NCBI GenBank assembly: GCA_001179505.1
Contig: CDMY01000742.1
Coordinates: forward strand, 1-25,326
Source: Vitrella brassicaformis CCMP3155
Lineage: Eukaryota; Protista; Chromerida
Length of the DNA: 25,326 nucleotides
Direction: 5' to 3'
Within the stretch, counting starts at the first letter, position 1. Each line of letters begins with the position of its first letter. Position numbers and translations under genes: made by a program. Under the pieces are notes generated by a model. That model saw only the letters and a list, made by a program, of their open reading frames with translations. It did not search any database and was not told the DNA's origin. Positions 1-23,339 of this stretch are shown one piece after another.

Positions 1-234
1 CGTCTCGCGGGATGAGGGTAGGTGGAGGGGGTTGAGTGTAGTCCGATACACGCTCGCTCATCCGAAAAGGAGGAGAAACAGCCGAGAAATCACCAACTCA
101 ATCATGCCAGTGACTGATTCTTGCTGCACAGTGGGTTAGTACATAGCTGGCCCACTTACGCGTCTGACCCGCTTATACGTACTACAGAGCTGACCCACTT
201 GTTCTCCAGCGACTTCTGGAGTGATTTCTCGCTG
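1..234 (-). mobile_element. Small non-autonomous retroelement, copy 1 (5' part; continues off the window to the left)
   Basis: 1-106 matches 3000-3105 at 102/106 nt. The GC-rich sequence continues to 234, where an AT-rich viral ORF remnant starts abruptly. 79-93 is an inverted match to 221-234, which ties 107-234 to the same element. Confidence 0.7.
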
Positions 235-423
235 TAAATATGAAAATATAATTGAACAACTAAATAATCATAATGAATACAAAAAATAATTGAAACACAT
301 TATACGAAATGTAAAATCAAGATTAAAGAAACTCCTATTACTGGATATGATGTATTTACACATTTTAATTATGAAGATTGTATTATGGAAATAACTAAAA
401 AAAAAGAATATTCATGCGACTAA
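235..423 (+). pseudogene. 5'-truncated viral ORF remnant
   Basis: Reads ..KYENIIEQLNNHNEYKK, then after a break ..HYTKCKIKIKETPITGYDVFTHFNYEDCIMEITKKKEYSCD*. There is no start codon, and it abuts retroelement copy 1. Confidence 0.4.
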
Positions 424-427
424 CAAA

Positions 428-754
428 ATGGAAGTAAGTATTGAATATTTATATAATAAATTCTTCAAAGAAAAGATGGAAGATAAACCTGATAACTTTA
501 CTTATTCTGGAGTTATGAAACTTAATGATTTGATTTATGATGAAGAAGAAGAATATAGCGACAATCCTAAATCTATTCTAACATATTATCATCAATATAA
601 ATTTATTATAATAAAAACTAATGAAGAAGAAATTGAAGTAAAAATAAGTGCCGACCCTATTTGGAGAAGTGTTGATGAAGTAGATGATAGAAGTGATGAA
701 TATGAAGAATATATGGAAAATGCAATAAATTATATTCAGAACTTATTTGAATAA
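428..754 (+). CDS. Viral hypothetical acidic protein (108 aa)
   Basis: Intact AT-rich ORF packed tightly between its neighbours; no motif recognised. Confidence 0.7.
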   Translation: MEVSIEYLYNKFFKEKMEDKPDNFTYSGVMKLNDLIYDEEEEYSDNPKSILTYYHQYKFIIIKTNEEEIEVKISADPIWRSVDEVDDRSDEYEEYMENAINYIQNLFE

Positions 755-786
755 ATATCCATTTAAATACTTTGAAGCATATTCTT

Positions 787-1317
787 TTAACGATATTTGA
801 AAATATAGACACGGAACCTCTCATTAAACCTATAATCTTTTTTCAATGTATTACTAGTTAAATATGTAAATTGATATTCATTTTCGACATCAGTAATATA
901 AAACGGAAGAGAGCAATATTCAAGAAATGGATAGTGATAATTTAATTCTATCTCAAATAATACAAAGTCTTCACTATTTTTCTTGGTTAAACCTATTACA
1001 TATCTGTTCTGCAAATCATCATTATCACTCTGCAAACAGTGAATTTTAGCATAATAATAACCCTGTGTACTAAATTTAAAACTCTTTTTTTCTTCTTCAT
1101 TGATAGTTAAATAATCAAAATCGATATTATTCAGTTGGTCAATTTCAATATCATATCTCGTTTCATTATCACAGTTAGCAGAATGGCCGACAAATGAAGC
1201 AGTGAGTATTGGGAAAGGTTGAATATAGTTTAATAGACCAGAAGGTTTTATTTCTTTTCCCCTGTGATATATTTTATCCGCAGACAAATTGTTTGTTACT
1301 ATCCAGTGTTTAGACAT
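787..1317 (-). CDS. Viral hypothetical protein (176 aa)
   Basis: Intact ORF. The AATATATATAGATAA motif directly at its ATG is shared with the gene at 2358. Confidence 0.7.
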   Translation of the reverse strand: MSKHWIVTNNLSADKIYHRGKEIKPSGLLNYIQPFPILTASFVGHSANCDNETRYDIEIDQLNNIDFDYLTINEEEKKSFKFSTQGYYYAKIHCLQSDNDDLQNRYVIGLTKKNSEDFVLFEIELNYHYPFLEYCSLPFYITDVENEYQFTYLTSNTLKKDYRFNERFRVYIFKYR

Positions 1318-1334
1318 TATCTATATATATTAAA

Positions 1335-1931
1335 CTATAATATCATCTTGTGTATAATTATTATTATTCTTGATTTTTTGTCGTTTTCTTTAAATTTGAT
1401 ATTAAAGAAATCAGTAAATGTCATGCCTTCAATGTTATAGTATTCCTCTTTATATATCAGTTCATCAGTGAGTAAGGGAGAAATAGCCAAAAACTCATCT
1501 TTATCTTCATCTTCTCCTTCCCAGATTTTGTAATGCAGTGTTCTTTCTTTTTCGATTGCAAGAGCAAATTTATCAGCAAGAAATTCATACATACTTTTCA
1601 TTTTTCTTTTAATAATATCCAGTTCATCGAATGTAACAATTGGTAAGGTAAAATTATCAGCAAACTCTATAATTACTTTAATAAATTGTTTATCATTAGA
1701 AGTAATTGCTTGTGATTTACAAATTGGACATTCAAGTATACCGTAATTATTGTGTGATAATCTTAAAGGATATTTTAAAGATGGGTTATGTAAAATATAT
1801 AAATATTTGCTTTCATCTTTTTCATCAAATTCTTTTACAGCATCAATACATTTCTGGCAAAATTTGTGATTACACGGAAACTTAAATTTCTTTTTTGTTA
1901 ACTTCGATAGACAAATGGCACAATCAGTCAT
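1335..1931 (-). CDS. RING-HC (C3HC4) finger protein, putative E3 ubiquitin ligase
   Basis: CAIC-x12-C-N-H-x2-C-x2-C ... CPIC pattern at the N-terminus, with an unusually long second loop. Confidence 0.85.
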   Translation of the reverse strand: MTDCAICLSKLTKKKFKFPCNHKFCQKCIDAVKEFDEKDESKYLYILHNPSLKYPLRLSHNNYGILECPICKSQAITSNDKQFIKVIIEFADNFTLPIVTFDELDIIKRKMKSMYEFLADKFALAIEKERTLHYKIWEGEDEDKDEFLAISPLLTDELIYKEEYYNIEGMTFTDFFNIKFKENDKKSRIIIIIHKMIL

Positions 1932-1967
1932 TCTGGATTATTGTTGTATTATAGTATATATTTTCAT

Positions 1968-2270
1968 TTATTGAAAACAATCCTCGTAACAGTCATAAAA
2001 GACGAAGAATGGATATTTTGGATGTCTGTATACACAGAAATCATAAATATTTATATTTTTTCCGCATTTTTTACAGGTTCGGTATTGCTTTTTTTGACAT
2101 TGTTTACATAAATGTATTCTGATAGTATTGAAATTAATTAGTTCAAAAATTGGTGCATTAATATTACAGACACTGCAAAATGGCCTAGCACGTTCTTCAT
2201 CAGGTTTTTCAACCTCTTCTAACATAAACTTATAGACTAATTCTATATCATATTCTAGATTTTCTATCAT
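1968..2270 (-). CDS. Small Cys-rich, probable Zn-binding viral protein
   Basis: Four CxxC-type pairs: CSVC, CKQC, CKKC, CYEDC. Confidence 0.6.
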   Translation of the reverse strand: MIENLEYDIELVYKFMLEEVEKPDEERARPFCSVCNINAPIFELINFNTIRIHLCKQCQKKQYRTCKKCGKNINIYDFCVYRHPKYPFFVFYDCYEDCFQ

Positions 2271-2665
2271 AATTATATAAATGTTTTTCTGGTTCCTTTT
2301 GCATACTTATACTATCACCCTTTAAATAAATAGAACACTTAATATATATAGATAAAAATGGAAACATATAACAAATTGGTGAAAGAGTTTAAAGAGAAAA
2401 TTGAGAAGTTTGTATTACGAGAGGGTGAGGTGAAGTATAAATATATAGAAGATTTAAAAATATATGAAAAAAAACCGTATAATTTAATTAAAAGTAAACC
2501 TTTTTATGTCAGTAGAGAAAAAGAAATATTTAAATTCGATTATTTTAAGTGTAAAGTATGCGGGATGAATGTGGCAAGAACAAAAAGTTATCTGGATAGA
2601 CAGGCAATTCTAAAGGAACTAAACGAAAAATATAATGGGAAAAGAATAAAAGCACCAAAATACAA

Positions 2666-3112
2666 GGGGGGGGAAACTGTCATTAACCGTAACACTCGTC
2701 TGTGTGTCCGTGATACTCATACAAATACAGTCCCATCAGCACGCAGAGTCAAATAGGCTCAAGGGGAGGAGGGATCAATCCCCGCCCCATCAGCACACCC
2801 CAGTCCCGCAAACCCTCCCCTCCCTCCCCCACGCAGACAGAAGCTAGTCGCACGCGCGAGAAATTTGTGCATGTGCCGCGCTTGCAGTTGAGACAGTTAG
2901 TGCAGAGGCGCTTGTGATTCCGGCAGTCACATCGTCGGCTGCATGTGGACAGCGCAGACGTCCCTTTCTCGTTGCATGCGCAACAGGGGGGCCCGCCGCC
3001 GTCTCGCGGGATGAGGATAGGTGGAGGGGGTTGGGTGTAGTCCGATACACGCTCGCTCATCCGAAAAGGAGGAGGAACAGCCAAGAAATCACCAACTCAA
3101 TCATGAGGGGGG
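2666..3112 (-). mobile_element. Small retroelement, copy 2 (447 bp, 5'-truncated), with 12-bp TSD
   Basis: Flanked by ACCAAAATACAA at 2654-2665 and 3113-3124. It is a GC-rich island in AT-rich DNA, shares sequence with copies 1 and 3, and has short G runs at both junctions. Confidence 0.88.
2749..3060 (-). CDS. Short Cys-rich ORF inside the retroelement (103 aa), possibly the vestigial N-terminus of a non-LTR retrotransposon ORF
   Basis: MSERVSDYTQPPPP...CCACNEKGTSALSTCSRRCDCRNHKRLCTNCLNCKRGTCTN is a CXC-like cluster of ten Cys. The family assignment is inference. Confidence 0.45.
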   Translation of the reverse strand: MSERVSDYTQPPPPILIPRDGGGPPCCACNEKGTSALSTCSRRCDCRNHKRLCTNCLNCKRGTCTNFSRVRLASVCVGEGGEGLRDWGVLMGRGLIPPPLEPI

Positions 3113-3406
3113 ACCAAAATACAATTATAAACAAGTTTTGGACATTTTCAGATTAGAGAATAAAGTATTTTATCAAAGTAATTACAGAGATAAAGAACAG
3201 TTTTACAATGAAGTAAATGATAGTAATTTAAACGCTATTAATATTAAGTATGTTAACAAATGTAATATATGTGCGTCTTGTTTAAAAGGAAGAATGCAGC
3301 ATTTCAATACAAAATTTAAATCTACAAAAGAAGAAATAAAAAAATGTTTAACGCTTGAAGAATTAAGAAATATAGCGACATTCATTAAACTTCCTAATCT
3401 TGAAGT

Positions 3407-3474
3407 GCTGATGGGACTGTATTTGTATGAGTATCACGGACACACAGACGAGTGTTACGGTTAATGACAGTTTC
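3407..3474 (+). mobile_element. Small retroelement, copy 3 (68 bp, severely 5'-truncated), with 15-bp TSD
   Basis: Flanked by TCCTAATCTTGAAGT at 3392-3406 and 3475-3489. 3405-3474 is the exact reverse complement of 2673-2742 (70/70). Confidence 0.9.
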
Positions 3475-3564
3475 TCCTAATCTTGAAGTTTGTTTAAAAT
3501 ATGGGACAGATAAACTGTTGGATGAAATGATTAAATATGAAAAGGGAAAAGTTAATGTTCTGTA

Positions 3565-4046
3565 TTAAATAATAGATTGTAAAACCTTTTTACCATTTTC
3601 AATTTCTTCATCAATTACTTTACTACATCCATAACAGATATTAGCAGATATACTCCATATTTCATCAGGACACATCTTAATATTATTACAACGAACACAG
3701 AAAGCCAGTTTTTCACAATTTGTGCATCTTCTCTTGTATCGGTGCGTAAATTCAACTTCTGGTTCTTCTTTGTTGCAAAAACTACATTTTTTTTGCTTCG
3801 GTGGAGGCTTTAAATTTTCATATTCTTGTTTGAAGCATTCTTTACATTTATAATTCAATCCATCTTTTGTAGATTTATCCTTGCTAAATTCTTTCTGATT
3901 TTTCATAGATTGACATGCAGTGCATTTCTTACAATAATTTTCATCTATTTCTTTATGCTGTCTTTGTTTACGCAGTGTGTTTCTTCTTTCTTTCCATTAT
4001 CACATTTTCTACGGTAATTCTTATAACCATTTCCGTATTTTCCATA
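3565..4046 (-). pseudogene. Viral multi-Zn-ribbon protein, frameshifted near its 5' end
   Basis: ORF 3565-3906 extends upstream in frame as ..YCKKCTACQSMKNQKEFSKDKSTKDGLNYKCKEC, a CxxC...F...DG...CxxC ribbon common in viruses. An ATG at 4046 (MEKYGNGY..) joins it through a one-base frameshift. Confidence 0.6.
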
Positions 4047-4237
4047 ATGTTTAACAAATTCAATGATATTTAATTTCTGAAAGCATCTATTGCATTCACG
4101 TGTTTCCATGTTTTCTCGATATATATATTATCTTTATAAATCTTTAAATAGTAATAACCCCTTATTTTATTTTTCCCTTTAAAGATATGGAATGCTTGTT
4201 TATATAGATTGAGAAAAATATTGATACCTTTAATATA

Positions 4238-7200
4238 ATGCCTCCGAGATTTAATTTGGAAGAACTGGCAAAGAAGCATGCAGTGAGAAAACAAGGGGCA
4301 TTTTTACAGAGAAAACCTAAAATACAGAAAATAGAAGGAATGGATGGAAAAATGATTAATTGGGTTGCTAATACTGAAAAATTACAATTAATGGGAAATA
4401 ATATTAACTATTTGACAAGTGAAATAAAAGAGTATTACGAAAAAGTTGTTGAGGAATTTAAAAGTGAAAATCCAAATTTAATAGTGGAAATAAATATTAA
4501 TTTTATTTACTATCCAGAAGAAGGACAAGGTGTAAATAAGAAAACAATCGAAAAAACACACAAAGAAAGTTGTAGTTCAGTTAATGTAATCAAACATGCA
4601 TTGGAAAGTGCTATGGAAAAGTCCGTAAATCCAAGTCCCAGAACGTTTTATTTAGATAATGTTGAAATATTAATAGACCGAGGACAACCAGAAAGTGGTG
4701 GATGTAGTGGTAGAGAATATCACACAACAACTGACCCGATACCAACTCAATTTCCTCATTTTGCATCGATAAAAGGTAAGAAAATAGCGATTGACCCTAA
4801 TACATTCATGCAAGTTGATTTTACAACGCCGAAAGCCAAAAATAATAACTGTTTGTTTGCAATTAAAAGTGGACGGTAGAGCAATAAAAGCAGACAAAAT
4901 AAGACAAGATTTAGGTATTTCAAAAAACGTGCCTATTCATATCAATCAAGTTGAAGACATATTTAAGTATTACAAACATAAACTTGGTTTTTCTCAATGA
5001 AAAGGTTACATTTTAACCGATATTTTTTTAAATCAATTTAAGCATTATACGGAGGACGATGGTAATGTATTGATAGAGTTAGGAGTTGTTTATGGAAAAA
5101 TTAATGAAGGTCATTACGTTTTGATTAACGACGCTTATGAAGTTGGATTTTGTAAAAAATGTAAGTCAGAGTGGCAAAGAACACATACCGAAGAAGAGTG
5201 TAGTAAAGTTAGGAATAAAAAAATTAAAAGAAAATCATTGCAAAGAAATGAAATAGAAAAGATACAAGATAGAGTAAAAATACTTAATGTGACAGATAAA
5301 AAAGAAATTATTTATAAATACGCATTTGTGGGTTTTGATTTAGAAACGAAACAAGGAAAAAGTCTTTTATACGATAAAAACGGAAAGTTAACGGACATAT
5401 ATGCGAATGAATACATGATTAATGGAGAATATCAAATGAATAAAGGTGAAGGTTGTTTTCAGATATTTGTGGATAAATTAAAATATTTGTCAGATAAAAT
5501 TGTAACAGCATTTAATGGATGCAGATTTGATTTCTATTATTTACTTTCTTATTTAATAAATGATGGGATAGAGATTAGAAAATTGATTATCAACAATGGA
5601 AGAATCATGAGTTTTGAATTTGGAAATAACAATACAGTGTTTGATATTAATTTATTTCTCAGCACTTCATTGAAAGAAGCCTGCAAAGCTTATCAAATTC
5701 AAAATGGGAATTTGACCATAAAAAAATACAGACATGGGAAGATGTGAAGAAATGGGAATTTGAGTGGAAACCATATTTAAAATATGATGTTTTGGCGTTA
5801 ATGGAATTAATTGAAACGTTTGGACATCTTGTGTATACTCACAGACAATGTAACATCACCAGATTTATGACAGGTAGTCAAATGACTTATGATTTGTGGG
5901 CATCGCAATTGGATATTAGTGATTTAATTTGTAAACCAACAGAAGAGGAAAATAAAGTTGATAGAGAAGCGACAAGAGGTGCTCGATGTTTGCCACATAT
6001 AAGAGATTACGAAAGTTCATTATACAAGTTAATTGAAGCATTTAACTGTGTTAAAGAATTCGATGAAAAGCAGTGTATTAAACGCAAAATGGATATGCTT
6101 ACTCAAAGAGAAAAAAATAGAATAAGTATTATTAGAGATGCTAAAACGGATGAATATTTATCCTATAAATCAACACCTTTTAAATACAAAAACAAAACAT
6201 TTCACACGTCACCTTATGATATACACATGAGTATTGAATATAGAAAAATGGAAGAAAATTTATACAGGTATATTCAAGAGAAAAAAGATTTCATGGTATG
6301 TGTAGATGTCAGTAGTTTGTATCCGACTGCTATGGCAAATTATGAATATCCAATTGGAAAACGCATAAAATCATTAAATCAAAAGAGAGAATTTGAAGAC
6401 GGAAAAATTGGGATATATTACATTGAATACACACCGCCGACCAATATTAGAGTGCCAATATTAGCACGAAAAACAGAGAAACAGTGATATTGCATAATTA
6501 CAGACAATGGTTAGAATTTCGTAGAGATTACAGGTTTGAAAGTCATTCACTTACATCGGAAAAAAACTTCTTACTGTGAGAGGAGAAAAGAAAGAAAATG
6601 AGAAGAAAATAACAAAGCCCTCATATATTGGAACCTTTATTTTAGATTATTCAAAACACATAATGTTACGATACACGAAAATTATTGACCCAACACTGCA
6701 AACTCCTGTTTTCTATTACACAGACACCGATAGTTTATATTTGGATTATGAAGCGTTTGAAAAAATTAAAGCATCTGGTCAATTTAAAATAGAGGAAACA
6801 GTTGATGATAAGGATGAGAATGGAAAAGAAGTGAAAGAAGACAAAAGAGAAGAACAGATAGAAATTAATAAAGCAAAGCAGAGGAAGAAACTGGGAAAAT
6901 TAGCAGAATGTATTGTTGAAGACATAGAATTAGGTATTTTGACCAATGATATTGATGATGAAGGATTAATACTAAAAGCACGATTTGATGCACCTAAATG
7001 TTATGTTTGTGAGTATGTAGATATGAATACCAATATTTGTTTTGGTGATAATGGAAAGAAAAGAATTAAAGGAATACCTTTAAAAGAAAAAGGAGCGTCT
7101 TATAAAACTTTTGAGGAAATAAATTATGTTGAAATGAAGAAAAATACAAATGGAAATTGGTATGAGACAGGTAAGAAACACAAGGTCAAAGATACGTATT

Positions 7201-7475
7201 TTTCAAAAATAGATTTGAGTGATGTAGAAATACAACAAGACGAAAAACATTATATTACTTACGATATGTATTTTACAGATGAGCCTACAGTAATTAAGTT
7301 GCCTAATAGAATTAAAAAAGTAGCATTTAATCGAACAAAAAATCAGTTAATGAGCGGTGTGGATATATTCAGTATATTATGCAATGATGAGCAAAAAACA
7401 TTTAGAAAATCATTCTTCGATAAAATGGAATTTAAAGATGGACAATGGTATCCATCAAATTATTCTACACAATAA
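4238..7475 (+). pseudogene. polB: Protein-primed family B DNA polymerase (probable terminal protein, vOTU, exonuclease, polymerase), fragmented
   Basis: ExoI FVGFDLET, ExoII FNGCRFD, ExoIII YLKYD, motif A DVSSLYPTAM, PSYIGTFILDYSK, motif C YYTDTDS and PKCY are spread over ORFs 4238-4879, 5070-5747, 5744-6487 and 6576-7475. There are several frameshifts, and motif B (KxxxNSxYG) was not found. Confidence 0.95.
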
Positions 7476-7490
7476 TATAATGATACAATA

Positions 7491-8591
7491 ATGCCATTAT
7501 CAGATAATCAGAAGAAAATATTGAGAGATATCTATTACAGTCCAGCAACCGGATATCAATCAGCAACACAACTATATCGTAAAGCAAAACAACAAGATAA
7601 AAGTATTACACAGAAAGGCGTAAAAGATTTTTTAAGTCGTCAAGAGATACAGCAGACATACATACAAGTGACGAGAGCAAAGGGTTTTAGTTTTATCGCT
7701 CCTCACAAGCGTTTTGAGTTTCAAATTGACCTTGTTTTTTTGCCCAATCCTCGATTTAATAATGGATACATCGGTTTATTGACTTGCATCGATGTATTTA
7801 CCAAAAGAGCGTGGGCTGTGCCTATTAAAGACAAAAAAGCAGGAACTATAGTAGAAGCATTTAAAGTAATACAGACAAAGCTAGGGAAACCAAATTATAT
7901 ATTCTCTGATTTAGGCAGTGAATTTTTGGGTGAATTTACTGAATATTGCAGGCAAAATAATATCACATTATTGAATTCCAAAAGTAAGTCCGTATTTGTT
8001 GAACGATGGCATAGAACGATTAAACTGATGATGAATAAAGCGTTGAGAAGCAAAAACTCAAAATCTTGGATTAGTATATTAAATGATATATTGAATAACT
8101 ATAACTCATCTTATCATACAACAATTAAAATGGCACCTAATAATGCTGTGAAGGCGGAAAACCAGGAAGAAGTCATGAAGAATATTATTAAGAGAGCACA
8201 CAGAGAGCATATTAAAATACCACTGAATAAAGGAGATAAAGTAAGAATTAGAATTGTAAAAAATGTATTTACCAGAGGGTTTAAACCTACGTTTTGAAAA
8301 GAGATATATGAAATTCAAGAGGTTAACGATAATATACCGATGACACCGTATAAAGTCAATGGAAATTATTTCATGAGGGCTGATTTATTGAAAGTAGACG
8401 CAGAAGGAGTAGAAAGAAATGTTCAACCCATGCCAATTACTGTGCAGGAGAGGCGAGAACGTGAACAGAGAATAACCCAATCAAAGCAACCTGAAAATAG
8501 GATTGGTACTCGTGCTTTCGCTAAACAGAAAGGTTTTGGATTGAAAACGCAAAGAAAAGAAGGAAGACTTGAAGATTATGAGGAACTTTAA
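7491..8591 (+). pseudogene. int: Retroviral-type (rve, DDE) integrase of Polinton type with an in-frame TGA at 8295-8297
   Basis: FQIDLV, LTCIDVFTKRAWAVP, FSDLGSEF and VERWHRTIK motifs. The N-terminus IYYSP..LY is typical of Polinton integrases. ORF 8340-8591 is in the same frame after RGFKPTF*KEIYEI. Confidence 0.95.
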
Positions 8592-8600
8592 TCGCATTCA

Positions 8601-8924
8601 TTAAAAAACACCTGACGAAAAGACAAATAGACTATATGATGATTTAACTATAAATGCTAATACTACAATAGAAACTATTGATAAAGTAAAATTAGATCGC
8701 TCTTTGACCTCTTTTGGAAATCCAATTCCAAAAATGAATTCAAGCACCTCCATAGCACTTTTATATCCCTTATCAAGTAATACCCAAAATTCATTTAAAA
8801 TCATCTTCAAAGTATTTCGTAGCATATCACCGAATTTAGGAATATTAAGTAAATCACTCAAATTTATATTACCTAATCCACCTCCTTTCCCTCCACCTCC
8901 TATTAAATCGCCTAAAAAATCCAT
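8601..8924 (-). CDS. Small predicted membrane protein (Gly-rich N-terminus, C-terminal TM helix)
   Basis: MDFLGDLIGGGGKGGGLG..., amphipathic middle, hydrophobic FTLSIVSIVVLAFIV near the C-terminus. Confidence 0.7.
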   Translation of the reverse strand: MDFLGDLIGGGGKGGGLGNINLSDLLNIPKFGDMLRNTLKMILNEFWVLLDKGYKSAMEVLEFIFGIGFPKEVKERSNFTLSIVSIVVLAFIVKSSYSLFVFSSGVF

Positions 8925-8943
8925 TTAGTTAATATATAAATCC

Positions 8944-9219
8944 TTATAAAAGAATAATAAACATCGTAGCATAAACACCAAAAGCAATTAATGCTCCGAT
9001 ATAAATGAAACCAAATACCGACAAAAATGTCTCCCAGATTTGATTAAATATGTCTTTAACATCATCAAGAATAACCTGTATCGGTTTAAAGATTTCTTTT
9101 ATCATATCTTCCAAAGCACCAGTAATATCAAACCCGCCACCACCTCCTCCTAAAAAACCTTTTCCTCCTCCTGTTATTAAGTCTTTGGCACTTCCTACGG
9201 GGTCAGTAATCCAATTCAT
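8944..9219 (-). CDS. Small predicted membrane protein, probable paralog of 8601-8924
   Basis: DLITGGGKGFLGGGGGG, amphipathic middle, hydrophobic C-terminus FLSVFGFIYIGALIAFGVYATMFIILL. Confidence 0.7.
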   Translation of the reverse strand: MNWITDPVGSAKDLITGGGKGFLGGGGGGFDITGALEDMIKEIFKPIQVILDDVKDIFNQIWETFLSVFGFIYIGALIAFGVYATMFIILL

Positions 9220-9620
9220 TATTCAGTTATTTCTTTATAGAAACGTATATAATTACATAATTGATTTATGACAAATTCTTTATCTCCGTCAAACTCCATG
9301 TTTTCCAACACTTTCTTTACAAATTCTTCCAGTTTATTCTCATTAATTATCGGGTCAAAAATCATTAAAATGAAAAGTCTAACTCTCATTACATTATCTT
9401 TAACGAATTTTGGTGTGATTTTCATTTCAAGTAATTCATCATAACTACATTTTTTCAATTCTTCTTTTGCTCTTTCCTTTAACGCATCGGGTAATTCACC
9501 GATACAAAACTTATCTAATTTTTCTTTGTTAATTTTACTATATACGTTGTCTTTAATAAACGCCTGTAAATTTTGTCTTCTCCTTAAATAGATTAATAAA
9601 TTCTTCTGTAAACATTTCAC
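9219..9620 (-). CDS. Viral hypothetical helical protein (true ATG probably 9615 with an early frameshift)
   Basis: 133-codon ORF starting at GTG. An ATG at 9615 in another frame (MFTEEFINLFKEK) overlaps its start. Confidence 0.6.
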   Translation of the reverse strand: MKCLQKNLLIYLRRRQNLQAFIKDNVYSKINKEKLDKFCIGELPDALKERAKEELKKCSYDELLEMKITPKFVKDNVMRVRLFILMIFDPIINENKLEEFVKKVLENMEFDGDKEFVINQLCNYIRFYKEITE

Positions 9621-9631
9621 TTAAATTTAAG

Positions 9632-9662
9632 TATATATATGTATATATATATATATATATAT
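9632..9662. repeat. (TA)n tract between divergent viral genes
   Basis: Directly visible. Confidence 0.9.
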
Positions 9663-9670
9663 TAAAATTA

Positions 9671-9892
9671 ATGAATAAAAATAATAAACCGAAGTAAGAT
9701 GCTCAACGCAATCGTGATTATCAAAGAGATAGACAGCGAAAGATATATCAGAAATATCTGGAATATGAGAAAATGAAAGAAAACTATGATAAATTACTAA
9801 ATGACTACAAAACACTAATTGATAAGTATAATGATTTAACTAAAAAACAGAAACATTTAGAAATACAACTTGCTAAACTACATATTATTTAA
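9671..9892 (+). pseudogene. bZIP-like basic and leucine-zipper mini-protein with an in-frame TAA at codon 9
   Basis: MNKNNKPK*DAQRNRDYQRDRQRK...MKENYDKLLNDYKTLIDKYNDLTKKQKHLEIQLAKL has five Leu at exact 7-residue spacing. It is absent from the ORF track. Confidence 0.5.
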
Positions 9893-10152
9893 TTAGAATT
9901 CAGATACAGAATTACTAAATGATTTATTTTTTGAAAGGAAATATAAGACATATATAATAAAACAACTACCCAAAATGATGCCGAATGAGTTATTTATGAT
10001 GGATGATAAATTGATTTGTGATGCCATGGAAACAGATGGTGCATTTTGGTTATTTTCCTCTTCCAGTTTTTTTTGAGATTTTTTATTATTTCATCCATAT
10101 TTTCATCATTACTACTCGTATCAGGCATAGGAGGGATATTAAAATTTTCCAT
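9893..10152 (-). pseudogene. Small protein with C-terminal TM helix, frameshifted in an A8 run
   Basis: MENFNIPPMPD...KNLKK, then shifted frame LEEENNQN...SFGIILGSCFIIYVLYFLSKNK...*. Confidence 0.5.
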
Positions 10153-10228
10153 AATTACACGATTACTATATTTCAATACGAAAAAAAATATAAAACAATT
10201 GCAAATTAAATATAATGATATATAAAGG

Positions 10229-10809
10229 ATGCCACGAAGTAATAAAGCTTTTGATAAGTAATTGAGGATATTAAGAAATCAACCGATGATGTTGATACAT
10301 CAGATATGCTAGAAATAAATGAAGGCGAGACATCATTTAATCTTGAACAGGAGTTAGAAAAGGATATGTTGAAAGCAAAGTATAATTCCTACTGCTGTTT
10401 GTTTCCTCATAAAAACTTTCAAAAATTACAAGCAAATATAAGCATCGGAGAATTAAAAGACAGGTTAGAGTATTGCCGTCTCTCTTCACAAATGGCAACA
10501 GATGCGATAGATACATCAACCTCCTATATTATCAGTAATATAGGAATGGTTATTGAAAAATTATTGCCGAAACTGACAAAAATACCACTCGATGGATTGA
10601 CTGACATGTTAAAAGAAGATGGTAATTTTATTACGACTTTAAAGATGCTTCTAGTCGAAAATCTTGAATACATCCAAATCGATCCGAGAATTCGATTGAT
10701 TGGTCTTTTAGTCTTTGCCGTGATTAAATGTGGAATTCAAAATATGGTCAATCCGAAACCGACACCAGAAAAAACAGAAGAATTAAAAACTAAATATTCT
10801 AATATATAA
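10229..10809 (+). CDS. Viral helical protein of unknown function (likely 5' frameshift; ORF track start 10306)
   Basis: The 167-aa ORF extends upstream in frame. An ATG at 10229 in another frame follows a TATATAA. Confidence 0.65.
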
Positions 10810-10814
10810 TTAAT

Positions 10815-11840
10815 ATGCCTCATCGTCAGAAGTGGTTAGAAACTGACAATTTAGTTGTTGATAATGTGTTTGTAGAAAAGAATTTACAAGGTATTAAAAT
10901 AGGAGATAAGACTGAATATTACGATGAAAACAAACATAACATAGCGATTATAGATGAGACAGACAATTTTAAAGTATTGGAAATACCACCTATGGAATAT
11001 ATGCCTGATGGTAGAGTAGTTAGGGATTACCAAAATTTAGAATGGGTTGTATCGGAGCGGATGAGACATAGTAATTTTGAATGGGTAGGTGATATGATGG
11101 ATTGGGCAAATGGTTATTATGAAAATCCAAGTGGTCATAATTTCGGATACTATTTAAAAGCGCATCAAGAATTAGGGATAGATATAACTGATTATGTGGA
11201 TTATGCGAAAAAATGGAAACATGAAGATTATTTAATTTATCGTTTTACTATGGGAGGAATATATATTGAAAATGGTGAATTATACTGGAAAAGAATGGTT
11301 GAGCGTGTCATTAAATACGCACCAACCGATATGTCCGAAAAATGGATTAAAGAATTTGAAGATATTACTAAAAATTCTGTTGAAGCGACTTTGGAAACTT
11401 GGGATTATACACACTCACCATCGGGAAAAATTATATACGATGTTGATAATAAGAAATATATTTGGGTAAATGATGAGACAAAAAATGAAGAAGGAGGAGT
11501 ATATGACCCTGAAACAGGTTATACTTATCCTCCTGATGATAAACCGATAGTAGGCGATACTGATTATAGTAAAAAAGGTATATTTGCTATATTTTTCATT
11601 TTCTATGACTATGTTAGACTTATCTATGATTTTTACTATGAATTTTTTGATAAAATGTTAAATTTAAGTAAATATCCTACAATCAATCGTAATTACAACC
11701 CCGATGTTTCAAAAGACGCTTTTGGTAATTTTATGAGTATGGTTTTGATTTATTATGGTAGTATTATGTCAGTAGGCTCTTTTGTTAAGATTGTACAGAG
11801 TTCATTATGCGGTGAAAAGTTTATAATAATAATATATTAA
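10815..11840 (+). CDS. Viral hypothetical protein (341 aa) with hydrophobic C-terminal segments
   Basis: Intact ORF with hydrophobic stretches GIFAIFFIFYDYVRLIY and FMSMVLIYYGSIMSVGSFV. Confidence 0.72.
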   Translation: MPHRQKWLETDNLVVDNVFVEKNLQGIKIGDKTEYYDENKHNIAIIDETDNFKVLEIPPMEYMPDGRVVRDYQNLEWVVSERMRHSNFEWVGDMMDWANGYYENPSGHNFGYYLKAHQELGIDITDYVDYAKKWKHEDYLIYRFTMGGIYIENGELYWKRMVERVIKYAPTDMSEKWIKEFEDITKNSVEATLETWDYTHSPSGKIIYDVDNKKYIWVNDETKNEEGGVYDPETGYTYPPDDKPIVGDTDYSKKGIFAIFFIFYDYVRLIYDFYYEFFDKMLNLSKYPTINRNYNPDVSKDAFGNFMSMVLIYYGSIMSVGSFVKIVQSSLCGEKFIIIIY

Positions 11841-11847
11841 CAATAAA

Positions 11848-12114
11848 ATGTCTGATAGAGGAGCAGGAGGTTTTATAATGAACGAAATTGTATTTCCAGT
11901 TTGAGATACGCTTTACGAAATAATGTTTCGTGCGATAGATGGAGTTATGAACAATGCGTTAAAGAAATCAAACCCTGATTTAGACCCTCAACTTTCAAAA
12001 TATGGGAAGGGGAGCAGATTGTTTTTATCTTATATCGTAACTATAGTTGGGAGTGTAGTTGAAGCGGGAATAGCAATACGACTTTGGATGTTATTTGACC
12101 AATTGAGAAGATAA
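11848..12114 (+). pseudogene. Small predicted membrane protein with an in-frame TGA at 11902-11904
   Basis: MSDRGAGGFIMNEIVFPV*DTLYEIMFRAID...LFLSYIVTIVGSVVEAGIAIRLWMLF. Confidence 0.55.
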
Positions 12115-12160
12115 ATAAATTATTTATTTTTTTATATAAGATATATATAACTAATTTAGA

Positions 12161-12658
12161 ATGTCAGCAGAGTTAGAAGACCAAGCAACAAGTGGATTTG
12201 ATTTTCTTACATATTATGTAACATTCGTCCAAACTTTTGCTAAAACTAATATGAAAAGTATTATCACTTCGTCAATGGTCTGGGGCATACAGACAATAAA
12301 CCCCTATAAAAAGCAAAGACAGGAAAGATATGTAGCAGGATATAGAATATCCCCTGAAATTTATGAAGGTGTAAATTCTCTACTTACAACTTATAGTGAT
12401 GCTTTGAATGATATTTTGTTGTCACCTATTTTCTTGAATTTGCCTATGGAAAATAAACTTGTAGCATCAGGAATTAAAGGTGCGGTTTCACGAATGGTTA
12501 TGGAGTTGTTATTCAATCAAGATCCTGATTATTCACTGGCAGTGGTCTATTTCACCGCTCATGCTGGTGGTGAATTCGTAAGTGATATGATTATGGAAAA
12601 AATGACCACAACTACTCCGCCTGTCAATGAAGGAGAGAATACAGAACCATTAGCATAA
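12161..12658 (+). CDS. Viral hypothetical protein (165 aa), candidate structural protein
   Basis: Intact ORF immediately upstream of the MCP, preceded by a T-run/TATATAA motif. Confidence 0.72.
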   Translation: MSAELEDQATSGFDFLTYYVTFVQTFAKTNMKSIITSSMVWGIQTINPYKKQRQERYVAGYRISPEIYEGVNSLLTTYSDALNDILLSPIFLNLPMENKLVASGIKGAVSRMVMELLFNQDPDYSLAVVYFTAHAGGEFVSDMIMEKMTTTTPPVNEGENTEPLA

Positions 12659-12673
12659 ACCATAATTAATTAA

Positions 12674-12695
12674 TTAATATTTTTTTTATATATAA
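12674..12695 (+). promoter_or_regulatory. Putative viral late promoter TTAATA(T)8ATATATAA upstream of the MCP
   Basis: A near-identical copy at 14041-14064 precedes ORF 14080. Each ends 15-16 nt before the ATG. Confidence 0.55.
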
Positions 12696-12711
12696 TCAGT
12701 TTATAAGTGAT

Positions 12712-13946
12712 ATGTCAAAATCTGTTGTTGAGAAGTCCCTTTCACTTCCCAAAAATACGGACTCTATTTTACAGCGATTTACTCATAGGCCAATTAAATC
12801 AAAGTCAAACCTTGTTTTTAATCTACCAAGCCGCAGTTTATCAAATACTTCAAGTTGGAACCGAAGTGAATGGCGGGTGTATCATAAAATTTCTGGGCAA
12901 ACATCGTTTTCCGGAAGTGCTGTATGGGAATTGGAGGAAAACTTTATGTTGATTGAACCATATTTAGAAATCGAATTTGAACCCTTAACGCAGACTGGTG
13001 GAACTACACAATATTATCATCGCACAGCACTACTTATCGATACTATAACTCTGTTTAGCGGGGGTGGAAGTCATCAATTAAAGCAGATAGAAGGAACTGA
13101 TTTATATTTTAGCATACTATTTTCACACACTAAAGATGCTCTACAAACGATTAATAGTTTCAGCGGATTAGAAAGCAGTGTTGAACGCTCACAGAATAAT
13201 ACCGATGGCAAACTTCGGTATTTCTTACCTTTGAAGTCAGTATTTTTCAACACCAATATTCCGCTGTGGTATTTGAAATCGAAACTTCGTCTGGTCATCA
13301 AATTCAAGGATGCTTCGGTGGCAAGTTATGGAGATGGAACATCACCTTCAACTCCGGCGATTAAACACTGCCTGCTTCATTGTCATTATATGGATTACAA
13401 CAGAAGCGTTAAACAAGCACTAATAGCAAATCGTAATATTAAACATTATCGTGTCGTTTCAAGTCATCGCACTAAACTTCATATTCCATCAGGCACCCTT
13501 TCATTTGCTGACCAATACCTAAATTTCAACCATCCATCGATCGTATTACAAAGGTTAATGCGGAAGGAGATGATGTTATTGACAACAATGTGCCTATCAA
13601 ACAATTCGTGCTAAAAGACCAGAACGGGACAATTATTAGTTATGCTTCTCCAATCGATGGTGAGTTTTGTAGGTCGGTATTAGCGTATACTCAGTGGGAC
13701 AATTTTCTGAGGAACTCGCCTTTTCTTGACGTAAATACCCTTTATTTTTTCAGTTTTGCTCAAAATCCAGCAGTCGCACTTTTGACAGGAAATAACACGG
13801 GCTGGAGACGCTTATTTTCAAATGAGAGAATTACAATCGATTTCGATAGTCCTACATCAGAAGATTATACGCTTCATCTAATTAGTTATGCGTATGAAAT
13901 GCTACAATTAAATCCTGCTAATGGAAGTTTAGTTGTCCTTTCTTGA
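12712..13946 (+). pseudogene. MCP: Double-jelly-roll major capsid protein, split into two overlapping ORFs (12712-13614 and 13590-13946)
   Basis: LIDTITLFSGG...IEGTDLY, YFLPLKSVFF..NIPLWYLKSKLRLVIKF and C-terminal YFFSFAQNP...TG...YAYEMLQL resemble DJR MCP motifs. It lies in the same element as the packaging ATPase. Confidence 0.85.
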
Positions 13947-14079
13947 TGTGTTTGATATTTAATTCAGTACAATATCACTTAAAGCACTTATTATAATATA
14001 ATGAATGATAGATGTTTAAGTGAATATAATTTTAATTAAATTAATATTTTTTTTATATATATAACTTTGTTAAACAGAA

Positions 14080-14643
14080 ATGGCAGCAGTACCAGCAGCA
14101 ACTAATATTAACCCTCAGGGTCTTGTTAATGCAGTAAGTCAATTACGTCCAGTAGTACGTCCTGGTCAAACGGCAAGAGCAACAAGAGACAGCACAATTG
14201 AACCTCATGGAATTCAAGATAGTGAGTTATATAATATTATGCAAGGCTTGGGTCATGCAAATGCTGATTATCACGCTCAACCAATTGTTAATGACAGTGG
14301 AAATATCGACAAACAAATTATTCGCTTAACTAATTATATTCGTTCTGTTACTCAACTACAAGGCTACTTGACTAATAAACTCAATGAGCTTATTCGTATT
14401 CGGTCATACATTAAAAGTACTAAAATTTATTACATAACCAAATTTATGAGACTTGGATATACTGAAAATGAAGCTGTATCTATGGCACAAGCTGTCATTA
14501 ATCCTATTGCCTCTGCTGAACTTAAAATGGATAACGAACTACTACCTGACAAATTAAGTCAGTTAGCTATGCAGACACAGAGGCAGACATACAACGACCC
14601 GAACTTGCGTCTTGGTCAAGCTCTGATAAACCAAGGGAGGTAG
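14080..14643 (+). CDS. Viral hypothetical protein (187 aa), candidate virion protein
   Basis: Intact ORF sharing the MCP upstream motif. Confidence 0.75.
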   Translation: MAAVPAATNINPQGLVNAVSQLRPVVRPGQTARATRDSTIEPHGIQDSELYNIMQGLGHANADYHAQPIVNDSGNIDKQIIRLTNYIRSVTQLQGYLTNKLNELIRIRSYIKSTKIYYITKFMRLGYTENEAVSMAQAVINPIASAELKMDNELLPDKLSQLAMQTQRQTYNDPNLRLGQALINQGR

Positions 14644-14675
14644 GCAAAAAAAAATATATATATATAATATAGAAT

Positions 14676-15631
14676 ATGAGTGCTTCTAGTGAAGATACAT
14701 TACTTCATTCTATCTATAACATGGCTAATAATTCAACACAATTAAAAGAAATACATGACTTGTACTGGGGAATGAATGATGAAGAGCGACAAAATTATGA
14801 TGCTGGCCTGAACTATCTTAAATCACATGCTGAAAGTTTACTACCAAAAACACCTTTGTTTAGTCTACACAATGTTAGTGACATACCGCCTGAACTGGAA
14901 GAAGGGCAAATGTTATTTACTTTCCCTCCAATAAACAAGAAAAAAGGATTTACTTGGGATAAAGATACCTTCTATAATTTTAAAGATAATCGTGCTTTGC
15001 TTGTTAATGTGAATGAACTTAATAAAGAAAATAACTTGATGCTTTTTTGAATGTCGTTAAAAGAAATGATATACTTAAAGGTGCATTAAATAATAGAGAT
15101 AATGGGTTTAATGTTTATTCATCCAATTTAAATAATCCAACCATTAAATCATTCTTTCAGAAATTTTTGGGTAAAAATGCTAATGTTGATTTATCTGTTC
15201 AAGAGGTTCTTAAAGTAGCGGACAGTGATGAAATACAAGACCAATTAATTAATGCTCGGTATGTTCCACCTCCACAGCAACCAGCACCACCTCCTCTTCC
15301 ACCTCAAATTCCTCCTGCTGATGGAGGCTTGCCTGAACCATTAGAAGAATCGCCTTATGAACCACAACCTGAACCGGCAGAACCGCCACCTCCTGCATTA
15401 CCCGAACCAGCACCCGAACCGCCCACTAATTTTCCACCCAATTATGAACCAGAACCTGAAACAGGAGCAAGACAAATACCACCTCCTGCACCAGAGCCAC
15501 CGCTTAATATTCCACCTGAATGGAACCCTCCTGCACCAGCCTATGGGGAGGGGAGGGCAACAACACATCGAACAACAAGAGGGCCAAGAATAGAAGATAA
15601 CATACAACCGCTACTGCAAGTCCCACGTTAA
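14676..15631 (+). pseudogene. Viral protein with a Pro/Glu-rich C-terminal region, split by a probable 1-bp deletion near 15035
   Basis: ORFs 14676-15050 and 15047-15631 join as ..KEN(K)LDAFLNVVKR.. if one A is added. There are repeated PPPAPEPP motifs and a PPNY. Confidence 0.62.
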
Positions 15632-15632
15632 T

Positions 15633-16295
15633 TTATTCTATAATTCCAAACCATTTATAATCACAGTAATTCTCCTTTATTTCTGTGTTTGAACTGCGTG
15701 CATTTACTGAAACAAAACAATAATTATTAGTAGCATTATAAAAATACTTATAAAATTCTGATTTTTTCTTGCCATCATTAAATATCTCTTCGTGAAGAAT
15801 TGCCAGACTAGCATGGCCACATTGGCGTAATAAAAATGCAAAATCATAAATGCTTCTTATTAATGTTGATACTCTTTTTACAGACTGACTTATTAGAATA
15901 ATACTGACATTCATATGCCTAACAATAGTAAGTAATCTCTCAAATTCCTTGCTTCTCGTATTGTCCATCGTAGCAATACTATCATCAAGTATCATTAGCA
16001 CTCGTCTTCGCTTCTTTGTCTTCTCTTGATGTTCCGCCAACGCCTTGATTTGCTCTTCTGTTATTTTGGTCAAAACCTTATGACGCTTCACGCCAGTCTT
16101 CAACCACAGTTCAGGTTGCACCGTCACAATCACTTCATCATCAAACTTATTCCTATCCCGCAGATACCGATATAATGATAGTGCAATCAAGGTTTTTCCC
16201 GTATTTATACGTCCTGTAATTAACAATATCCAGCACTTCTTCTCGTTCGCGATCTTGTTGAATATCTCTCGGCAGTTCCGTATTTTTTCGTGCAT
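15633..16295 (-). CDS. A32/FtsK-HerA-like genome packaging ATPase, intact
   Basis: Walker A ITGRINTGKT, Walker B LMILDD, and downstream VRH and ISQ motifs. Confidence 0.93.
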   Translation of the reverse strand: MHEKIRNCREIFNKIANEKKCWILLITGRINTGKTLIALSLYRYLRDRNKFDDEVIVTVQPELWLKTGVKRHKVLTKITEEQIKALAEHQEKTKKRRRVLMILDDSIATMDNTRSKEFERLLTIVRHMNVSIILISQSVKRVSTLIRSIYDFAFLLRQCGHASLAILHEEIFNDGKKKSEFYKYFYNATNNYCFVSVNARSSNTEIKENYCDYKWFGIIE

Positions 16296-16308
16296 CTCAT
16301 TTATTAAT

Positions 16309-16497
16309 TTATATATTATTATTCTTTGATTCCATTTTTGTATTGACTGCGCGCTCTATCCGTCGAGCCACCTGCTCCGCATTCTTTACTTTCGCATTTT
16401 TCAGACGCTTTAAATAAAACTGGTAAAGTATTCTTCCATCATTATCATCGTTTGTATTTTTATTTTTTTTCAGTCGCTGAATTAGACTATTAGACAT
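16309..16497 (-). CDS. Small basic viral protein (62 aa)
   Basis: Lys/Arg-rich ORF directly upstream of the ATPase on the same strand, preceded by TATATA. Confidence 0.55.
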   Translation of the reverse strand: MSNSLIQRLKKNKNTNDDNDGRILYQFYLKRLKNAKVKNAEQVARRIERAVNTKMESKNNNI

Positions 16498-16540
16498 TAT
16501 ATATGATAAAATTAAAAAAACAACAACGCACTTTTAAAAT

Positions 16541-17083
16541 TCACCGCTGTGCATCGTGACAATATGGGGCGGTATTCACCTGCCCTGCCACCACCTGTTC
16601 ATTGTTTTGCCATTCTCCACACGCCCATTCCTCATTTCCTCTCCATTGTTTTTCTCATTTGTCACGAGTAGTCTTTTCATCTCGTGTCAATCGTCTTTTG
16701 ATCTCATCCATTTGTTTTTCTCATTTGTCACGAGTAGAGTTTCTATCTCGTGTCGGTCGTTTTTTGATTTTTGAACGTGTCTTTTTTTTCCTCTTTTTGA
16801 GGCACAGGCAACTGAGTGCCTTTCTCCTCCTCTTTGAGCCACCTCCGTTAATACCAAACCCCGTCCACTCTCCCTGTGAGAGCTGGCCGTTAGCAGGTCT
16901 AGCCGTTCGTTTAGTCGGCTCGTATCGTAAATTCCGTATACCATCCCCCTCCCAAGATTTGAACCTCTGCGGTAATGAATGGCATAAACCCAGTTTTCCC
17001 ACTGAACTATGGTGGCAGGCGTCGGGGGGGGTCTGCTTAGTATGGAGGAGGTGGTAAATCACTTAGTATGCTGGTAAATCACT
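16541..17083. repeat. Candidate right terminal inverted repeat of the virus
   Basis: Non-coding region of intermediate GC. It has an internal tandem duplication (26-bp exact core at 16646-16671 and 16712-16737) and a terminal repeat TGGTAAATCACTTA at 17052-17065 and 17072-17085. The partner TIR is not in the window. Confidence 0.5.
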
Positions 17084-23336: not shown

Positions 23337-23339
23337 TTA

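Follow-up and report, generated by a model that had tools for sequence, protein, structure and literature searches.

Three inserts in an endogenous polinton-like virus of Vitrella brassicaformis are very probably dead copies of an abundant R2-like host LINE

Contig CDMY01000742.1 of the chromerid alga Vitrella brassicaformis CCMP3155, analysed here as a window of 25,326 nt (the whole stretch considered below), carries an AT-rich endogenous virus with three GC-rich inserts, and it raises the question of what these inserts are and how they came to lie in viral DNA. The initial annotation took them for a separate family of small, tail-less retroelements of about 560 bp. Its account of the locus itself was confirmed: copy 1 (1-234, minus strand), copy 2 (2666-3112, minus strand) and copy 3 (3407-3474, plus strand) share sequence, with 96% identity between 1-106 of copy 1 and 3000-3105 of copy 2 (4 of 106 positions differ) and 99% between 2670-2742 of copy 2 and its complement at 3405-3477. 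The TSDs are exact, with 12 bp for copy 2 (2654-2665 = 3113-3124) and 15 bp for copy 3 (3392-3406 = 3475-3489). Copies 2 and 3 also have a common 3' end, and neither TIR, LTR nor poly(A) was seen on them, as initially described.

The DNA around the inserts belongs to a polinton-like endogenous virus, for which the following features were found:

235..16500: polinton-like endogenous virus, AT-rich (26-37% GC), right edge approximate
2358..3567, plus strand: viral ORF in three pieces with copies 2 and 3 between them (from excision and homologue alignment)
5744-6487: protein-primed PolB signal
7491-8297: rve integrase
15633-16295, minus strand: A32-type packaging ATPase

The PolB signal is located in one of three abutting ORFs. 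In a Pfam search, neither the 14 ORFs taken from the GC-rich flank nor 3 ORFs at 8.3-9.2 kb of the viral stretch had a match. When both inserts are cut out together with one TSD copy each, an open ORF of 222 aa starting at 2358 is restored, which aligns end to end with an independent homologue of the same length (P0001; 123 identical residues in 225 columns). This alignment is ungapped where copy 2 had been and has 1-aa gaps close to the copy-3 site. For a viral ORF searched by tblastn, phage records contained no match. At this locus, the copies have destroyed one viral ORF. The host flank was initially reported to be free of further copies, and none was found within 16.6-25.3 kb, either by repeat search or by tblastn with 12 family proteins.

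The origin of the inserts became evident from protein matches. The ORF across copy 2 matches P0002 (96% identity), which is from Vitrella brassicaformis CCMP3155 by its NCBI name, and P0003. P0002 starts with the residues of copies 1 and 2 and continues with the translation of the loose end that contigs show before 2861; 64 of its first 66 residues are identical to the head of copy 2, and its residues 1-20 match 61..2 of copy 1 at 100% identity (tblastn). The other side of the copy-2 junction, 2860-2762, is matched by the C-termini of P0004 and P0008. The initial annotation had envisaged an RT-encoding element with both termini, and through the matches to P0002, P0004 and P0008 such an element, a LINE, is found to exist. 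The inserts are resolved into its parts as follows:

1..234, minus strand: copy 1, cut by the window start; 5'UTR at 62-234 (173 nt) and LINE ORF codons 1-20 at 61-2
235..239: TAAAT, five bases common to the viral flank and the upstream sequence of other genomic copies
2654..2665: left TSD of copy 2, ACCAAAATACAA
2666..2672, minus strand: short oligo(C) tail, 7 C in element sense, after GTTTC; in other copies, 6-8 of these bases are matched and the sequence then diverges
2673..2758, minus strand: LINE 3'UTR, 86 nt, ending in ...GGTTAATGACAGTTTC, the end common to copies 2 and 3; stop codon at 2761-2759
2759..2860, minus strand: last 33 codons of the LINE ORF and stop (LARATSFCLRGGGR...DPSSP, then stop), aligned with P0004 aa 1079-1110 and the P0008 C-terminus
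2861..3060, minus strand: first 66 codons of the LINE ORF, ATG at 3060-3058, with an N-terminal Cys-rich motif; P0002 aa 1-66, P0004 aa 1-70
3061..3105, minus strand: LINE 5'UTR, 45 nt, giving the 5' truncation point of copy 2 (from the alignment)
3106..3112, minus strand: CCCCCCT (element sense), seven additional bases where copy 2 begins at its 5' junction; missing from copy 1
3113..3124: right TSD of copy 2, ACCAAAATACAA
3392..3406: left TSD of copy 3, TCCTAATCTTGAAGT
3407..3474, plus strand: copy 3, final 68 nt of the LINE 3'UTR, with the GTTTC end and no C run (from repeat and alignment)
3475..3489: right TSD of copy 3, TCCTAATCTTGAAGT

Copy 2 consists of the 5'UTR and codons 1-66 of the LINE, fused out of frame to its last 33 codons and 3'UTR, so that the 5' end of the LINE is directly joined to its 3' end and about 1,010 codons (~3 kb) are missing at the junction 2861|2860. 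Copy 3 represents the final 68 nt of the same LINE, and copy 1 its 5'UTR and ORF start. What had been regarded as a family of about 560 bp is both ends of a LINE with an ORF of about 1,110 codons from which ~3 kb have been deleted. Most other genomic copies have extra sequence between 2860 and 2861, and the contigs listed there from runs X1, X5, X9 and X2 all show the parent form, none of those listed bridging the junction. Since the LINE protein cannot be encoded by the copies, these are non-autonomous at best. It counts against our reading that full-length parent DNA from this genome was not seen, the parent being reconstructed from proteins and 30-nt loose ends. At the 3' junctions of other copies, loose ends falling at one place are merged into consensus lines of low agreement (0.51-0.67). 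A retrocopy of a spliced mRNA, considered for the junction at 2860|2861, was rejected, as the loose ends lack GT...AG on both strands and coding sequence makes up the missing part. The features of a SINE were not found either: Rfam gave no small-RNA head in 1-3700 at E<=1, and the body comes from the start and end of the LINE ORF itself. At this threshold, Rfam reported no family in 1-3700 besides two chance-level rows in viral DNA, and at E<=10 it yielded nothing credible in 1-300 and 2640-3140 (no ribozyme, rRNA, tRNA or snRNA). The predicted fold of the 3'UTR did not rise above that of shuffled sequences (z +0.8), and the 28-nt pattern of the 3' end had no exact match in viral, metagenome and genome contig collections.

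The 5' end of copy 1 requires a closer look. The loose ends of runs X1, X5 and X9 begin behind 239 and not behind 234, and with TAAAT common to the viral flank and those other copies the 5' junction is ambiguous by 5 nt; these bases are possibly a microhomology. As other genomic copies extend past 239, copy 1 is incomplete at its 5' end. It should also be noted that different sequence adjoins 107-234 in other contigs (loose ends at 130), which counts against assigning this part fully to the LINE. The initial prediction of a TSD beginning with TAAATATGAAAA about 330 bp to the left of the window presupposes that copy 1 shares the internal deletion of copy 2. Two of the junctions are covered by contigs of run X1, which may be the assembly's own data: with no differences and at single-copy depth, they span that of copy 1 (186-850) and the one at the 5' end of copy 2 (3045-3434). 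Contigs from 4 runs compared with the window show no joints, and thus no empty-site allele was seen in them.

The full-length sister P0004 (1,110 aa) contains a reverse transcriptase, behind which come a CCHC motif and a restriction-like nuclease. P0004 was among 11 proteins recovered by the family search at E<=0.001. Conservation was counted over 27 full-length members: the RT catalytic residues D454, A612 and D613, the CCHC residues C903, C906, H914 and C918 and the nuclease residues D967 and D983 are present in 27/27, D614 and K1012 in 26/27. RVT_1 was detected in 13 of the 27 members, together with no other Pfam family; searched by itself, P0004 had neither a Pfam hit nor, with phmmer, a hit in the PDB. 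With the 27-member profile, R2 proteins were the best matches in the PDB (9nl2, 8.9e-14), followed by LINE-1 ORF2p (1e-11). A second stretch of the 9nl2 match covers the CCHC/RHN/PD region and aligns with R2 residues 938-1021 at a stretch E-value of 3 and a conditional E-value of 1.7e-5, so that the nuclease match is weak by itself. The AlphaFold model (pLDDT 84.9; low confidence, below 55, in the Cys-rich residues 1-100) found R2 proteins as all of its top 7 Foldseek matches, and the fold alignment (VIA) to 9nl2 joined 730 residues of model positions 107-1089 (Z 24.3, rmsd 7.5). The Z of 20.9 for LINE-1 ORF2p is near the R2 score and counts against a specific likeness to R2. Among the nearest clusters of the ESM Atlas is one auto-named 'SLACS', which we treat as a lead only. 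Judging from the absence of a hit, an APE endonuclease at the N-terminus appears to be absent. By its protein sequences and model, the element can be classified as a non-LTR retrotransposon with a predicted R2-like architecture, as RT, CCHC motif and PD-(D/E)xK-type nuclease are found together with the marks of target-primed reverse transcription (TPRT); that the nuclease is active is inferred.

This family is a high-copy repeat of the host. In run X1, the summed contig depth, which is not equivalent to copy number, amounts to 18,000-22,000 at 2674-2707 and ~1,000 at 2861-2979, compared to 11 in the viral flank. While it climbs steeply toward the 3' end of the LINE, it is up again at 3031-3098 (3,000-6,000), and owing to this renewed rise depth does not simply fall off from 3' to 5'. 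Runs X2 and X9 contain pieces of the element with the viral part uncovered, a lack of cover that is to be read as a blank and not as evidence; no RNA data set is listed as containing the element, and that X9 and X17 are RNA runs is a guess only. Furthermore, the LINE ORF is fused into Vitrella gene models with PH or Myb domains on contigs of 30-57 kb. Since the inserts derive from an abundant host LINE by truncation or internal deletion, they belong to an ordinary transposon of the host, as opposed to a new parasite specific to viruses; the proposed 'undescribed parasite of endogenous viruses' is not borne out.

Taken together, the three inserts are very probably dead copies of one abundant R2-like host LINE, likely put into the endogenous polinton-like virus by TPRT. 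The initial annotation had already recognised the corresponding marks, namely TSDs of variable length, a common 3' end and 5' truncation, all of which are present. Its description of the element as tail-less has to be revised: copy 2 has seven extra C after GTTTC, and other genomic copies end in 6-8 C. Copy 3 is without a C run, which counts against such a 3' end as a general feature. In the proposed mechanism, the nuclease of the element would nick AT-rich target DNA, and the RT would copy the RNA starting from the 3' end that bears the short C run; an early stop of synthesis would leave a 5' truncation, and a second-strand cut 12-15 bp away would produce the TSD. The 3-kb internal deletion may go back to the source copy, in which case an already shortened derivative would have been mobilised in trans, or may have arisen by a template switch during copying. 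Similarly, CCCCCCT at the 5' junction of copy 2 could stem from a jump to a second RNA, at its C-tailed 3' end, or from untemplated addition.

LINEs that bear a nuclease include R2, R4, NeSL, CRE and Hero. The Vitrella LINE resembles R2 (9nl2, 9nl3, 9dou, 8gh6, 8ibw) in its single long ORF with RT, then CCHC, then a PD-(D/E)xK-type nuclease and no APE domain, in the best profile and fold matches, with an alignment that begins near residue 107 and runs to 1089, and in the 5' truncations and extra bases at 5' junctions that occur in both. However, R2 has its site in 28S rDNA, whereas the present insertions are found in a viral ORF and AT-rich DNA and are flanked by 12-15 bp TSDs, and Rfam detected no rRNA in 1-3700, so that the 28S site of a strict R2 is not in evidence. 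In addition, the N-terminus of the Vitrella LINE is a poorly modelled Cys-rich motif (pLDDT <55), its 3' end is a short C run, and its identity to R2 proteins is 13-17%. For the build of copy 2, the available text of PMC3414825 describes a close parallel in the SIDEs of Drosophila, short internally deleted R2 and R2/R1 elements for which template jumps occur in vivo: a LINE 5' end is joined to a 3' end, the coding body is gone, insertion is by TPRT, and template jumps add foreign RNA at 5' ends. Unlike SIDEs, copy 2 has no 5' ribozyme detectable with Rfam, its junction lies within the ORF and out of frame, and the deleted form is known here from copy 2.

[quoted passage not shown] As presented in the accessible part of PMC8547959, GC-rich Ngaro retroelements are nested in AT-rich endogenous viruses of the marine protist Cafeteria burkhardae, with a measured bias (91% of type 1 inside mavirus-like virophages). 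In contrast to the Vitrella LINE, these are elements of ~6 kb with split direct repeats and a tyrosine recombinase. Nested RT elements in PLVs of cryptophytes, ochrophytes and chrysophytes break up genes or spacers of the PLV, which is expected to be disabled by them, but they measure 4-9.5 kb with direct repeats or are of Ty3/Copia types, and the available sections of PMC12220804 and PMC10120064 do not describe short, TSD-flanked LINE stubs. For Vitrella itself, PMC4501334 (supplementary file 11) puts the genome-wide LINE content at 0.87%; the genome paper gives LINEs only as a total of 632 kb and SINEs as none.

Among the alternatives, it is possible, if doubtful, that the short form is a self-standing, internally deleted non-autonomous subfamily, mobilised in trans by the protein of the full-length LINE, and that it was the source of copies 1 and 2. 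Copy 2 has precisely such a build, copy 1 starts alike only 2.4 kb away, and the depth at 3031-3098 exceeds that of the adjoining ORF start as if the head had been kept and the body lost; the SIDEs of R2 would provide a precedent (PMC3414825, as far as available). However, the contigs listed at 2860/2861 show parent sequence only, the two copies differ at 4 of 106 positions, and the junction is out of frame with no sign of selection. That copy 2 was inserted long, near full length, and lost ~3 kb later by DNA deletion at the locus seems quite unlikely, given that a comparison of loose ends with the window shows no microhomology at the junction and that the remainder of the interrupted viral ORF is intact. 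Such a loss is conceivable for any nested repeat, and the virus has decayed elsewhere, with the PolB signal in one of three abutting ORFs.

We consider it very improbable that the inserts represent a new small, tail-less retroelement specialised on viral or AT-rich DNA, or used by the host to inactivate viruses. The element does not form a family of its own but is a piece of a host LINE, it abounds in host contigs, and PH- and Myb-domain host gene models on contigs of 30-57 kb contain its ORF in fused form. While the 16-kb viral stretch has three independent insertions within 3.5 kb, compared to none in 8.7 kb of GC-rich flank, and 749 of ~16,300 viral bases (4.6%) are LINE-derived compared to 0.87% genome-wide (PMC4501334), this is a single window chosen for this feature that cannot test enrichment; the destroyed viral ORF would fit such a role as well. 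A related proposal, which we regard as unlikely, is that the R2-like LINE itself prefers AT-rich polinton-like viral DNA, which would make it an independent alveolate counterpart of the virophage-seeking Ngaro of Cafeteria and a main route to the disabling of endogenous viruses in this alga. Finally, the view that the inserts are solo repeats or pieces left by a Ngaro/DIRS retrotransposon with a tyrosine recombinase, suggested by GC-rich inserts in an AT-rich endogenous virus as in the Ngaro picture (PMC8547959, accessible part), is refuted by the identity of the encoded protein, a LINE-type RT with a restriction-like nuclease for which no recombinase family was found, and is further contradicted by the exact 12- and 15-bp TSDs, the 68-nt 3' stub and the lack of split direct repeats in the window.

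With dead copies of an abundant R2-like host LINE as the best explanation, a claimed new parasite of endogenous viruses becomes a plain case of dead copies of a common host LINE. At the same time, the locus provides a first anatomy of this LINE family in a chromerid alga, with a single ORF for RT and restriction-like nuclease, a short C-run 3' end and pervasive 5' truncation. This family is part of a widespread group, as its C-terminal part falls into 2,309 representative clusters and 520 of 603 metagenome candidates are related loci. Furthermore, several annotated Vitrella proteins are chimeras of a host gene and the LINE ORF.

The three inserts at the start of the window are real: positions 1-106 match 3000-3105 at 96%, 2670-2742 and 3405-3477 are 99% complementary, and exact duplications of 12 bp and 15 bp surround copies 2 and 3, respectively. 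Furthermore, excision of copies 2 and 3 with one duplicate each yields an open 222-aa ORF, whose full length aligns with that of P0001, a 222-aa protein encoded on a metagenome contig and an independent homologue. Of the 225 alignment columns, 123 are identical; the copy-2 site is ungapped, and single-residue gaps lie near the copy-3 site. No other GC islands of this kind were found in the viral part, and a further copy in the GC-rich flank was detected neither by repeat search nor by tblastn.

The annotation had taken the inserts for a separate element of about 560 bp. However, an ORF across copy 2 (2749-3084, minus strand) matches two proteins with the NCBI name Vitrella brassicaformis CCMP3155. 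The N-terminus of the LINE family protein P0002 (MSERVSDYTQPPPP...) corresponds to the start encoded in copies 1 and 2, and past the residues encoded up to 2863, P0002 is the exact translation of the loose end (diverging contig part) before 2861. In another frame, 2860-2762 matches the C-termini of the full-length family proteins P0008 and P0004 (1,110 aa), with a stop at 2761-2759. Between 2860 and 2861, additional sequence is present in most of the other genomic copies. Copy 2 is thus a LINE 5' piece joined to a 3' piece, from which about 1,010 codons (counted on P0004) are absent.

Composition of the three copies
1-234, minus, copy 1: 5'UTR, 173 nt, followed by codons 1-20 up to the window edge
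2666-3112, minus, copy 2, in element sense:
part 1: 7 extra bases, CCCCCCT, at the 5' junction
part 2: 5'UTR, 45 nt
part 3: codons 1-66
part 4: last 33 codons, joined out of frame
part 5: 3'UTR, 86 nt
part 6: 7 extra C after the common GTTTC end
3407-3474, plus, copy 3: last 68 nt of the 3'UTR

Since the copies consist of pieces of LINE UTRs and ORF ends, the supposed small element is both ends of an autonomous LINE with a long ORF.

A search with P0002 residues 1-783 returned 11 proteins at E<=0.001, including Vitrella copies and full-length relatives at 31-42% identity; at the same threshold, the C-terminal part alone matched 2,309 representative clusters, and a metagenome scan gave 520 related loci out of 603 candidates. 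Among 27 aligned full-length members, the reverse transcriptase (RT) residues D454, A612, and D613 are found in all and D614 in 26, the CCHC motif (C903, C906, H914, C918) is complete in 27 of 27, and the nuclease signature comprises D967 and D983 (27/27) and K1012 (26/27). Pfam recognized RVT_1 in 13 of the 27 and no other family in any of them. The family profile matched R2 retrotransposon proteins best in the PDB (9nl2, a solved R2 protein, at 8.9e-14, with a weak second stretch spanning the CCHC/RHN/PD region), followed by LINE-1 ORF2p (1e-11). All 7 best Foldseek matches of the P0004 AlphaFold model (pLDDT 84.9, pTM 0.83) were R2 proteins, and VIA-align placed 9nl2 (Z 24.3, 730 residues aligned, rmsd 7.5, covering model residues 107-1089 through the nuclease domain) before LINE-1 ORF2p (Z 20.9). 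The element was classed as an R2-like LINE by its architecture rather than as true R2; it lies outside rDNA.

The initial annotation described the inserts well, and its retrotransposition model was right: variable TSDs, a common 3' end, 5' truncation, and an RT with nuclease point, by established LINE knowledge, to insertion through target-primed reverse transcription. The internal deletion would derive from a deleted source copy or from a template switch, and no contig bridging the deletion junction was found among the contigs listed. For R2, PMC3414825 describes SIDEs, which are derivatives with an internal deletion, as well as template jumps in vivo. The CCCCCCT at the copy 2 5' junction could, speculatively, reflect a template jump to another RNA molecule at its C-tailed end.

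The description of the family as tail-less was not borne out. Other copies share 6-8 of the terminal C of copy 2 and then pass into varied flanks (loose ends at 2665, 2667, and 2668), so that the family 3' end is a short C run; a 40-nt contig of run X9 covers 2668-2707 with zero differences. Of 36 metagenome relatives (loci L002-L080) in which a long ORF is followed by 60 nt or more, 12 show a simple repeat no further than 450 nt past the stop (A runs, ATT/TAA, AGT, ACT, ATGT, or AT), and none has a C run. Simple tails, or microsatellite targets, vary by lineage among these relatives.

In run X1, the viral DNA is covered at a depth of about 10-11, without differences, and the summed contig depth of the element, which is not to be taken as copy number, is far higher:

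2674-2707: 18,000-22,000
2742-2792: 7,000-9,000
2844-2860: 1,900
2861-2979: about 1,000
3031-3098: 3,000-6,000

The depth drops roughly 20-fold across the final 190 nt, which is consistent with 5' truncation of the kind found in copy 3 being very frequent. The rise at 3031-3098 may stem from further deletion derivatives or from subfamilies with a common 5'UTR.

R2-type elements carry 5' ribozymes. The 5'UTR of copy 1 (62-234, minus strand, 173 nt) folds far more stably than shuffled sequence, with an MFE of -60.7 kcal/mol that was equalled by 1 of 200 shuffles (z -2.95), including a 14-bp helix that pairs the first bases, 234-221, with 93-79, and Rfam found no ribozyme in it. Other genomic copies extend past position 239. 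In other contigs, stretch 130-239 adjoins different sequence on either side: loose ends stand before 130 (X1, X2), before 146 (X9), and behind 239 (X1, X5, X9). A 608-nt contig of X9, presumably an RNA run, bears this stretch at a depth of 568. It may represent a LINE 5'UTR that varies between copies, or part of some other abundant RNA acquired via template jump.

The surrounding DNA has a GC content of 26-37% between 235 and about 16.5 kb, rising to about 55% over the rest of the window, with these features:

5744-6487: protein-primed PolB signal, viral part
7491-8297: rve integrase, viral part
15633-16295, minus: A32-type packaging ATPase, viral part
17969-18068: 41-nt inverted arms, GC-rich flank
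23144/23442: 193-nt repeat pair, 97%, GC-rich flank
24530/25063: 89-nt repeat pair, 93%, GC-rich flank

Together with RING-finger ORFs, the viral genes identify the AT-rich part as an endogenous polinton-like virus (PLV). Its polymerase gene may be frameshifted, or the assembly may contain errors, as three ORFs abut in different frames (5070-5747, 5744-6487, 6576-7475) and only the middle one has a DNA_pol_B_2 match. Two 57-nt direct repeats, 88% alike, lie at the compositional transition (16646-16768) and may belong to the end of the PLV. A 470-nt X1 contig agrees with 2131-2571 before 29 unmatched letters, and X5 cover is absent at 2481-2604; a second, slightly different PLV copy may exist in the genome. 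Repeat-rich DNA surrounds the PLV, with repeats over 17969-18222 and 23144-25151 as well as CA/CT microsatellites, and no Pfam-recognizable ORF was found in the flank.

Retrotransposons inside endogenous virophages and PLVs are already published: PMC8547959 mentions Ngaro elements in Cafeteria virophages, PMC10120064 a chrysophyte PLV with nested Ty3/Gypsy, and PMC12220804 cryptophyte PLVs with 4-9.5 kb RT elements; PMC12721341 refers to Vitrella PLVs. Keyword searches of open-access literature yielded no account of LINE stubs inside PLVs, nor of the present R2-like LINE family in chromerids. Three hits within 3.5 kb of the 16-kb virus, versus none in 8.7 kb of flank, and LINE-derived bases making up 4.6% of the viral stretch versus 0.87% genome-wide, are suggestive of viral preference, in a window selected for this very feature and thus not a test of it. 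The Vitrella genome is given in PMC4501334 as 72.7 Mb with 632 kb of LINEs and no SINEs listed.

Long LINE ORF stretches also occur in three annotated Vitrella proteins (P0002, P0006, and P0007, named, one each, 'PH domain-containing', 'Myb-like domain-containing', and uncharacterised), which look like gene-model chimeras; in P0002, residues 1 to about 783 derive from the LINE, without the RT core. As the gene models with PH or Myb domains into which the LINE ORF is fused lie on 30-57 kb contigs, the family also resides in ordinary host DNA. The reading of the inserts as a new small virus-targeting element finds no support.
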